Positions 40,190 to 40,606 of a stretch of 64,000 nucleotides of DNA are shown piece by piece (position 1 is the stretch's first letter; every line of letters starts with the position of its first letter). The notes beneath the pieces were generated by a model. The model ran no database searches and had not been told where the DNA came from. It saw only the letters and a list, made by a program, of their open reading frames with translations. Origin of the DNA: a phage; sequence record PQ400055.1. The stretch is one strand, 5' to 3'. The translations under genes and the position numbers were made by a program.

Positions 40190-40606
40190 TTAGAGAGATT
40201 CGGTAAAGGTACGAGCGATAACATCACGCTGCTGGTCTGGAGTCAGACTATTGAAGCGCACTGCGTAACCAGAAACGCGAATTGTAAGCTGCGGGTACTT
40301 CTCAGGATGTTCAACAGCGTCCAGAAGAAGATCGCGACTCATCACATTGATATTCGCGTGCTGACCACCTTCGACAACCGGAGCACCATTATCTACAATG
40401 ACAGGACGGAAGCTAGTTGTGTGCAGTGCCAGCGAATCGACGTCTTCGGCGGTGATCACATGGTCTTCTGCGAAAGTTTTACTAACAATTACTTTAGCGC
40501 CGATCAGTGCTTTCGGTTCGGATACCAGAATCATAGGCGCGAAGTGTCCACCAATAATAGTACCTTTATGCTCACCTTTCATGATTTGAATTGCTTTAAA
40601 TTCCAT
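40190..40606 (-). CDS. grcA: autonomous glycyl radical cofactor GrcA/YfiD-like
   Basis: 138 aa; C-terminus [39 protein letters not shown] is near-identical to E. coli GrcA including the RVSGY glycyl radical motif. Confidence 0.88.

Follow-up and report, generated by a model that had tools for sequence, protein, structure and literature searches.

A predicted GrcA-type autonomous glycyl radical cofactor, probably the RB49-group ortholog of T4 vs.6, with a recombinant 3' half

The closest described systems to the gene considered here are the Escherichia coli protein YfiD, also called GrcA, and Y06I, the product of the phage T4 gene vs.6. According to work from the Knappe group (Wagner et al. 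2001, as cited in passages of PMC8683613), both proteins receive a glycyl radical from the activating enzyme of pyruvate formate-lyase (PFL), and the activated proteins form a complex with PFL that has been cleaved by oxygen, restoring its activity. In those passages, no phage protein other than Y06I has been shown biochemically to rescue O2-cleaved PFL. The radical glycines are G102 in GrcA and G734 in PflB, and the radical is transferred from GrcA G102 to PflB C419 (PMC12338860). A comparison published in 2006 reported vs.6 as a conserved open reading frame (ORF) with a Gly_radical match in six of six T4-like genomes (PMC1524935). We analyzed a phage gene of this kind, grcA, at positions 40190 to 40606 on the minus strand of sequence record PQ400055.1; throughout, the window is the whole stretch of 64,000 nucleotides (nt) of this phage DNA. 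We predict, with a probability of roughly 85%, that this ORF is the Krischvirus (RB49-group) ortholog of T4 vs.6/Y06I and encodes a GrcA/YfiD-type autonomous glycyl radical cofactor. The gene is already known: its homolog in T4 was characterised as long ago as 2001, and a deposited genome already carries an annotation of the identical protein. An earlier reading of the sequence (the original prediction) had proposed a GrcA-type spare-part gene, and the orthology to vs.6/Y06I supports that proposal.

The gene belongs to a closely related group of phages. The 3 kb around grcA are 99.9% identical to Escherichia phage kvi and 97% identical to RB49, Phi1, GEC-3S and about 60 other genomes of Krischvirus (Straboviridae, T4-like). 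The same protein, at 100% identity, is present in phage kvi as kvi_238, which is annotated as 'autonomous glycyl radical cofactor', and the gene is annotated as vs.6 in RB49, Phi1 and JSE; the window gene is the ortholog of RB49 vs.6. The RefSeq entry for T4 vs.6 (NP_049730) carries the annotation 'autonomous glycyl radical cofactor GrcA', and BLASTP aligns T4 Vs.6 with the window protein over its full length at 55% identity (E=2e-45). Gene order is informative as well. The succession of vs.8, small ORF(s) and vs.6 is common to RB49 and T4, and the window gene lies 3' of vs.8 as in T4, where the region is bounded by regB and denV. The two genes are located as follows.

40190..40606, minus strand: grcA (vs.6) coding sequence, with an ATG start, 138 amino acids and a TAA stop at 40190-40192, from the ORF list
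40742-41233: vs.8 homolog, distant (26% identity to T4 vs.8, E=2e-6, pairwise comparison)

Beyond the T4-like phages, homologs were found by tblastn in 1,581 phage records, which include T4-like, T5-like, Aeromonas and jumbo Serratia phages. Escherichia phage T5_ev212 has such a homolog (L016:5815-6183), of which the C-terminal two thirds alone align with the window protein; the T5-like copies sit in a tRNA gene cluster.

The protein itself was divided into the following parts.

40193..40375, minus strand: glycyl-radical domain, codons 78-138, homologous to PflB ~698-759 and GrcA 67-127 (HMMER matches to 1cm5/1h16 and 6owr)
40265..40279, minus strand: RVSGY motif, codons 110-114, read from the sequence, with residues invariant in both alignments
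40268-40270, minus strand: predicted radical glycine G113, equivalent to GrcA G102 and PflB G734
40376..40606, minus strand: N-terminal region, codons 1-77, phage-type and weakly similar to the GrcA N-terminus

For the C-terminal domain, Pfam reports a Gly_radical match (E=2e-16). Among solved structures, the best match is the nuclear magnetic resonance structure of E. coli YfiD/GrcA (6owr, E=1.5e-31, residues 37-138) and the second is the C-terminus of PFL (its residues 698-759, E=2.8e-26). BLASTP against GrcA of E. coli K-12 yields 65/104 identities (E=3e-41). Amino-acid identity rises towards the C-terminus: the last 61 residues are 85% identical to E. coli GrcA, and 77% identical to each of PflB and TdcE. 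The observation with which the original prediction began, that the C-terminal 40 residues are almost identical to E. coli GrcA and include RVSGY, held up on alignment, where 38 of the 40 residues agree (the differences are E99/K and D123/E) and RVSGYAV is exact. When 33 to 42 sequences were aligned, a 10-residue segment and 26 to 29 other columns were invariant across phage and bacterial GrcAs, and the window allele retains every one of these residues, including those of the radical domain.

The protein is also complete. Its length of 138 amino acids compares with 127 for GrcA and 120 for T4 Vs.6, and the phrog_1209 profile is matched over its full length (residues 3-138 against positions 1-121 of 121, E=1.4e-49). 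A truncated fragment is ruled out, as the protein spans the full length of its homologs in phages and bacteria; the possibility that the gene might be a fragment without the N-terminal domain, which had been raised along with the original prediction, is thus not borne out by the phrog_1209 match. The gene encodes a stand-alone protein without the PFL catalytic barrel, it has its own terminator and its own, strong ribosome-binding site, and its neighbours are unrelated. Judged from its sequence, the window protein is therefore a GrcA (family TIGR04365, IPR011140) in the structural sense, namely a small, stand-alone protein with a predicted PFL-type radical domain. The signals that flank the gene are as follows.

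40611..40617, minus strand: Shine-Dalgarno sequence AGAGGTG, ~5 nt 5' of the ATG, read from the sequence
40146..40180, minus strand: intrinsic terminator with a 10-bp stem and a 5-nt loop, then TTTCGTTTTA, from a terminator scan

The Shine-Dalgarno sequence overlaps the stop of a 41-amino-acid ORF (40617-40742) upstream of grcA, and a ribosome-binding site is annotated at the equivalent position in phage Ec_Makalu_003. The terminator begins 9 nt past the grcA stop, and its GC-containing stem-loop reads AAGCCAATCC-GAAAA-GGGTTGGCTT, followed by a T-run; a terminator is annotated at the corresponding site in G2248, Makalu_003 and G37-3. In all particulars, the terminator included, the original description of the sequence was correct. 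Within 2 kb upstream of grcA we found neither a T4 late promoter (TATAAATA) nor a clear MotA-type middle promoter. The promoter search upstream of grcA gave one sigma-70-like site, at 42122.

By homology to E. coli YfiD and T4 Y06I, we infer every step of the following mechanism for the window protein. The protein would be made during infection from a leftward transcription unit that ends at the terminator (40180-40146). Host PflA, the PFL-activating enzyme of the radical S-adenosylmethionine (radical-SAM) type, would abstract hydrogen from G113 in the RVSGYAV loop. The C-terminal radical domain (residues ~78-138) would dock into host PflB that O2 has cut at G734, and TdcE is probably a docking target too. 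The radical would pass from G113 to PflB C419, and pyruvate could then again be split into acetyl-CoA and formate. As to why a phage should carry such a gene, T4-type phages stop host transcription, so that the stress-inducible host grcA presumably could not respond after infection. A PFL kept alive in the microaerobic gut might preserve acetyl-CoA and ATP for the phage, and it might also preserve formate for a class III reductase such as the phage's own NrdD. Most of the class III ribonucleotide reductases that have been characterised use formate as their reductant, and for T4 NrdD a site that binds formate has been discussed (PMC4493059). An auxiliary role under microaerobic infection, as originally suggested, is a reasonable reading of the gene.

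It is important to consider several points that weigh against this assignment or against the function attached to it. First, the NCBIfam model TIGR04365 gives the window protein 127.5 bits, which is below the 170-bit equivalog cut-off, and the alignment begins only at residue 37. Second, the N-terminal half has diverged and contains an insertion. Third, the homolog that has been tested biochemically is the T4 protein, to which the window protein is 55% identical, and, where the radical domain begins, the window allele differs by L84A and further substitutions. Fourth, the rationale that PFL supplies formate to NrdD is inference only, and grcA lies ~17 kb from nrdD in the window. Finally, no fitness phenotype of a phage grcA mutant came up in the papers searched, which yielded only citations of Wagner 2001 and the 2006 comparative paper.

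The first two of these points can be examined further. T4 Vs.6 scores 151.1 bits with TIGR04365, and so fails as well, while E. coli GrcA scores 234. Because the biochemically validated T4 protein also fails, the 170-bit cut-off excludes functional phage members of the family. The low score would thus appear, from these sequence comparisons, to reflect N-terminal divergence in the phage lineage and not a different function. The N-terminal region (codons 1-77) is 97-99.5% identical in nt among Krischvirus relatives, and compared with T4 Vs.6 the alignment shows ~14 additional residues, an insertion specific to Krischvirus. Homology to the N-terminal half of bacterial GrcA is putative: the multiple alignment pairs a QI motif (Q7 invariant in 33 sequences) and an A(R/K)xIV(S/A)K...ED motif with the N-terminus of GrcA, and the local alignments of HMMER and BLAST start only at residue 37.

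An AlphaFold2 model of the protein has a mean predicted local distance difference test score (pLDDT) of 76.9. In a fold search, its C-terminal part matches YfiD (E=5.7e-06), and it superposes on other Gly-radical domains with a root-mean-square deviation of ~1 A over 43-45 residues, although those matches have E>=0.05. We also observed that the N-terminal region (residues 1-77) is modeled as ordered and beta-rich, with pLDDT ~80 for residues 1-20 and 31-60. The E. coli YfiD N-terminus has been reported as disordered, unlike this prediction. A fold search with the N-terminal domain returned insignificant KOW/Spt5-like matches only.

A divergent, phage-specific N-terminal half that is predicted to be ordered, where that of E. 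coli YfiD is reported to be disordered, is also what might be seen in a decoy. A decoy of this kind would sequester the PflA of the host, or sit on PflB without being productive, and so redirect host fermentation. The alleles of some relatives, which turn the otherwise invariant loop into RISGYAT, could be read in the same manner. However, the T4 ortholog restores PFL activity in vitro, according to the passages of PMC8683613 already mentioned, and every invariant residue of the radical domain is retained in the window allele. Moreover, the surface that fits PFL is under strong purifying selection, with a nonsynonymous distance (dN) of 0.13 versus a synonymous distance (dS) of ~1.9, as a working spare part predicts. 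We consider a decoy to be very unlikely, and continue to regard the protein as a GrcA-type cofactor.

A further question is which enzyme the cofactor would serve. The original prediction mentioned that the phage also encodes NrdD and NrdG, and both genes are indeed found in the window.

21310..23172, minus strand: nrdD, class III (anaerobic) ribonucleotide reductase (PF13597, E=5e-175, plus Gly_radical)
19404..19913, minus strand: nrdG, radical-SAM activase of NrdD (Fer4_12, E=2.4e-43, plus Radical_SAM)

In the kvi annotation, nrdG is called 'anaerobic NTP reductase small subunit'. NrdD has an RVSGY of its own at residues 592-596, the same pentapeptide as in GrcA and PFL, and this is preceded by a Cys4 zinc ribbon (CxxC...CxxC; residues 557-596 examined). 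The presence of NrdD and NrdG in one window, and the pentapeptide that the phage NrdD shares, make it conceivable that the small protein is instead a spare part for phage NrdD cleaved by O2, replacing its lost C-terminal domain and perhaps activated by phage NrdG. A paper in the Journal of Biological Chemistry from 2021 speculates on spare parts for other glycyl radical enzymes (PMC8683613), and in Serratia phage BF the homolog is located between nrdD and nrdG. But the similarity to NrdD hardly extends past the motif. When sequences are anchored on RVSGY, the window protein has 8/58 identities to NrdD, five of which are the motif itself, versus 46/58 to E. coli PflB, and BLASTP of the grcA product against NrdD finds nothing significant (E>1). 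The small protein is also without the zinc ribbon that is present in NrdD, and the T4 ortholog, the one tested, acts on PFL together with the PFL-activating enzyme in the cited passages of PMC8683613. Repair of NrdD, which the original prediction had offered as a possibility, is therefore unsupported by the sequence, and we judge it highly improbable; PFL is the target that we prefer.

The arrangement in Serratia phage BF, a jumbo phage, is an observation in its own right. In its locus (L017:2116-6287), the grcA homolog at 5001-5363 stands between nrdD at 2116-3939 and nrdG at 5814-6287. This arrangement suggests an anaerobic module, and the gene order fits a functional link of grcA to anaerobic nucleotide metabolism.

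We also investigated the origin of the gene. A phage protein whose last 40 residues match E. coli GrcA at 38 positions might easily be taken for a recent acquisition, and the original prediction drew this conclusion from the high identity, proposing recent capture from an enterobacterial host. On such a view, the gene would be a 'moron' that still bears the sequence signatures of the host. Its overall GC content is consistent with the idea, being 0.468 as compared to 0.403 +/- 0.025, the second highest of the 82 ORFs of the window. So is the situation in Tequatrovirus, the sister genus, where vs.6 is 97% nt-identical to E. coli grcA over its 3' 185 nt. To test the idea, we estimated dS by the Nei-Gojobori method (NG86) on the 61 conserved C-terminal codons, compared GC and GC content at third codon positions (GC3) with the 82 window ORFs, and ran blastn on the 80 top-ranking bacterial loci from a scan of 185,579 species genomes.

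These analyses gave a different answer. The 61 C-terminal codons, which are the most conserved of the gene, are 85% identical to E. coli grcA in amino acids and only 74% identical in nt, with a proportion of synonymous differences (pS) of 0.69, a dS of ~1.9, which is saturated, and a dN of 0.13. Across 5,426 complete E. coli genomes, the identity found by blastn does not exceed 74.6% (over 185 nt); the best matches listed are to pflB. For the best 80 bacterial loci, the maximum nt identity is 79%, over 177 nt, and by blastn the 5' 200 nt of grcA do not align to any of them. In a search of 5.8 billion proteins, the source-named matches with more than 68% identity are all from phages and cover the full query, whereas no named bacterial GrcA exceeds 67% identity or covers more than 75% of the query. 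Finally, GC3 is 0.417, within the phage range of 0.379 +/- 0.058. Because GC3 is typical of the phage, the raised overall GC must come from amino-acid composition. The high protein identity is best attributed to purifying selection, because the domain must be compatible with PFL and PflA of the host.

Recent capture from an enterobacterial host is thus contradicted at the nt level, and two of the checks that had been suggested, codon usage and the nearest host homologue, came out against it as well: GC3 is phage-typical and not host-like, and none of the best 80 bacterial loci exceeds 79% nt identity. In addition, the gene and its position are common to T4-like genera. The synonymous-site analysis refutes recent host capture for the gene of this phage, and we regard the capture scenario as extremely unlikely, even more so than the decoy or the repair of NrdD. 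The gene has long resided in T4-like genomes and is not a recent import from the host.

The Tequatrovirus case requires separate treatment, as T4 vs.6 is chimeric. We compared T4 vs.6 (L004:7558-7920; NC_000866 63557-63919) with grcA of E. coli K-12 (L005:4067-4450). The 3' 185 nt of vs.6, from the EGGQH codons to the stop, are those with 97% nt identity to K-12 grcA, corresponding to a dS of 0.07, and within this tract there is a run of ~150 nt at 100%. The 5' part of T4 vs.6 has no nt similarity to grcA and a T4-like GC3 of 0.19. The host-like 3' segment occurs at 95-99% identity in 497 phage records. From these sequence comparisons, the tract looks like a host-to-phage gene conversion of the module that encodes the radical domain, and the apparent conversion occurred in Tequatrovirus and not in the lineage of the window.

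Recombination has probably also affected the 3' half of the gene in Krischvirus. Free-standing homing endonuclease loci, of the Seg and Mob type, are known from T4-like phages. The relevant features at this locus are as follows.

40104..40189, minus strand: intergenic region between grcA and nrdC.11, an empty endonuclease site (from annotated relatives, Pfam and segment identities)
40325..40360, minus strand: mosaic patch, codons 83-94, which differs from RB49 HLNINVLLREML (pairwise and multiple nt alignments)
L009:1965-2495, L011:1963-2556, L012:1966-2559, L013:1965-2558, L014:1966-2559 and L015:2001-2528: endonuclease genes in six relatives

In the window, the site between grcA and nrdC.11 contains just the terminator, with no endonuclease gene. 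In the relatives JSE, MIZ5, G37-3, JK32, FL04 and phiS, a free-standing HNH/NUMOD4 endonuclease gene is located between the grcA stop and nrdC.11. These genes are 528-594 nt long, belong to at least two types and match HNH_3 and NUMOD4 in Pfam. The presence of the endonuclease coincides with the state of the adjacent sequence. The Krischvirus flanks (vs.8, the 41-amino-acid ORF, grcA nt 1-200 and nrdC.11) are 95-99% identical to the window. By comparison, nt 201-417 of grcA are 86-96% identical to the window in RB49, Makalu_003 and G2248, versus 68-85% in JSE, MIZ5, G37-3, JK32, FL04 and phiS, which are exactly the phages that carry the endonuclease. The endonuclease-linked alleles recode the invariant loop, where the serine codon TCT becomes AGC or AGT, and one group has RISGYAT. 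Divergence of a 3' half beside an endonuclease gene is the usual signature of co-conversion or of immunity at the cleavage site; cleavage of grcA itself is putative.

In the mosaic patch of the window allele, there are ~17 nt differences to RB49 within ~40 nt, many of them synonymous, while the gene is otherwise ~99% identical. One of the changes in the patch is L84A; Leu stands at this position in most of the aligned homologs. The patch is common to JSE, in which the endonuclease is present, and G2248, in which it is absent, and the remaining 3' end matches RB49. The window allele is therefore a recombinant, or mosaic. When the divergent endonuclease-linked 3' module (29 amino acids) was searched against phages with tblastn, it was found at 95-100% identity only in nine Krischvirus records (ten matches including the query), and the carriers that we inspected (JK32, MIZ5, G37-3 and FL04) all have the endonuclease. 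The same search against phages did not find a donor of the module, the next-best matches being 78-80% identical.

There is a second homing-endonuclease site nearby, at 41234-41289, which is empty in the window. In G2248, JSE, JK32, FL04 and phiS, the corresponding site between the endolysin gene and vs.8 holds a 576-nt gene with HNH_3 and AP2 domains.

L008:237-812, L009:242-817, L013:242-817, L014:241-816 and L015:242-817: second-site endonuclease genes

The endolysin itself (41290-41679 in the window; the RB49 annotation also reads endolysin) belongs to the M15 peptidases (Peptidase_M15_4) and is not a lysozyme of the T4 e type. Elsewhere in the window, a single ORF of 902 amino acids (3093-5801) occupies the position of the DNA polymerase and is a putative polymerase. 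In phage kvi (L003:2879-6671), which is nearly identical in other respects, an 825-nt ORF splits the polymerase annotation in two. This accounts for the offset of 883 nt between the coordinates of the window and those of kvi, and the window is thus distinct from kvi.

Taking these observations together, we tentatively propose a joint reading, although we think it has less than an even chance of being correct. In this proposal, the radical-domain module has been overwritten repeatedly by recombination. In Krischvirus this may have been driven by free-standing HNH endonucleases, which insert directly behind the gene and may cleave its conserved 3' half, with the window allele as an endonuclease-free mosaic, and in Tequatrovirus the source would be host grcA DNA. 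The main role of the protein might be to secure PFL-derived formate for NrdD under microaerobic conditions, rather than to support energy metabolism in general.

Several lessons can be taken from this locus. One concerns method: that a phage protein shares very high amino-acid identity with one of the host does not equate to recent transfer here, as the synonymous sites are saturated. Biologically, a lytic phage has, beside its own anaerobic ribonucleotide reductase, a predicted repair part for a fermentation enzyme of its host, and a link from PFL through formate to NrdD during infection in the gut becomes testable. How an auxiliary gene stays variable is illustrated by the endonuclease hotspot and by T4 vs.6 with its host-derived 3' end. 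Given that the gene is already known, the recombination of its 3' half may be the only part that merits a further look.

With respect to known systems, the nearest is T4 Vs.6 (= Y06I). Both proteins belong to the phrog_1209 family and have a C-terminal radical domain with RVSGYAV, but the window protein is 18 amino acids longer, with an insertion after HKGTI. The loci differ too: in T4, vs.7 lies between vs.8 and vs.6, and vs.5 is downstream, whereas in the window a 41-amino-acid ORF is upstream of grcA, and the terminator and nrdC.11 are downstream. T4 vs.6 has a recent host-derived tract, and the window gene has no such tract. E. coli GrcA/YfiD (P68066; 6owr; TIGR04365) likewise stands alone as a small protein, with a glycyl-radical domain at its C-terminus and the invariant glycine loop; activation by PflA and PflB as the target are presumably shared as well. 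However, only residues 37-138 of the window protein align with it (63% identity), the N-terminus being divergent. Unlike E. coli GrcA, the window copy is encoded by a lytic phage, and thereby escapes host regulation. When set against E. coli PflB and TdcE, the phage protein has no catalytic barrel and is equivalent solely to that portion of PFL which is lost, or suffers damage, once O2 has cleaved the enzyme. Lastly, the locus resembles the Seg- and Mob-type loci in that the endonuclease gene of the relatives lies directly 3' of grcA and the adjacent 3' half has strongly diverged, and it differs from them in that the site in the window carries no endonuclease.

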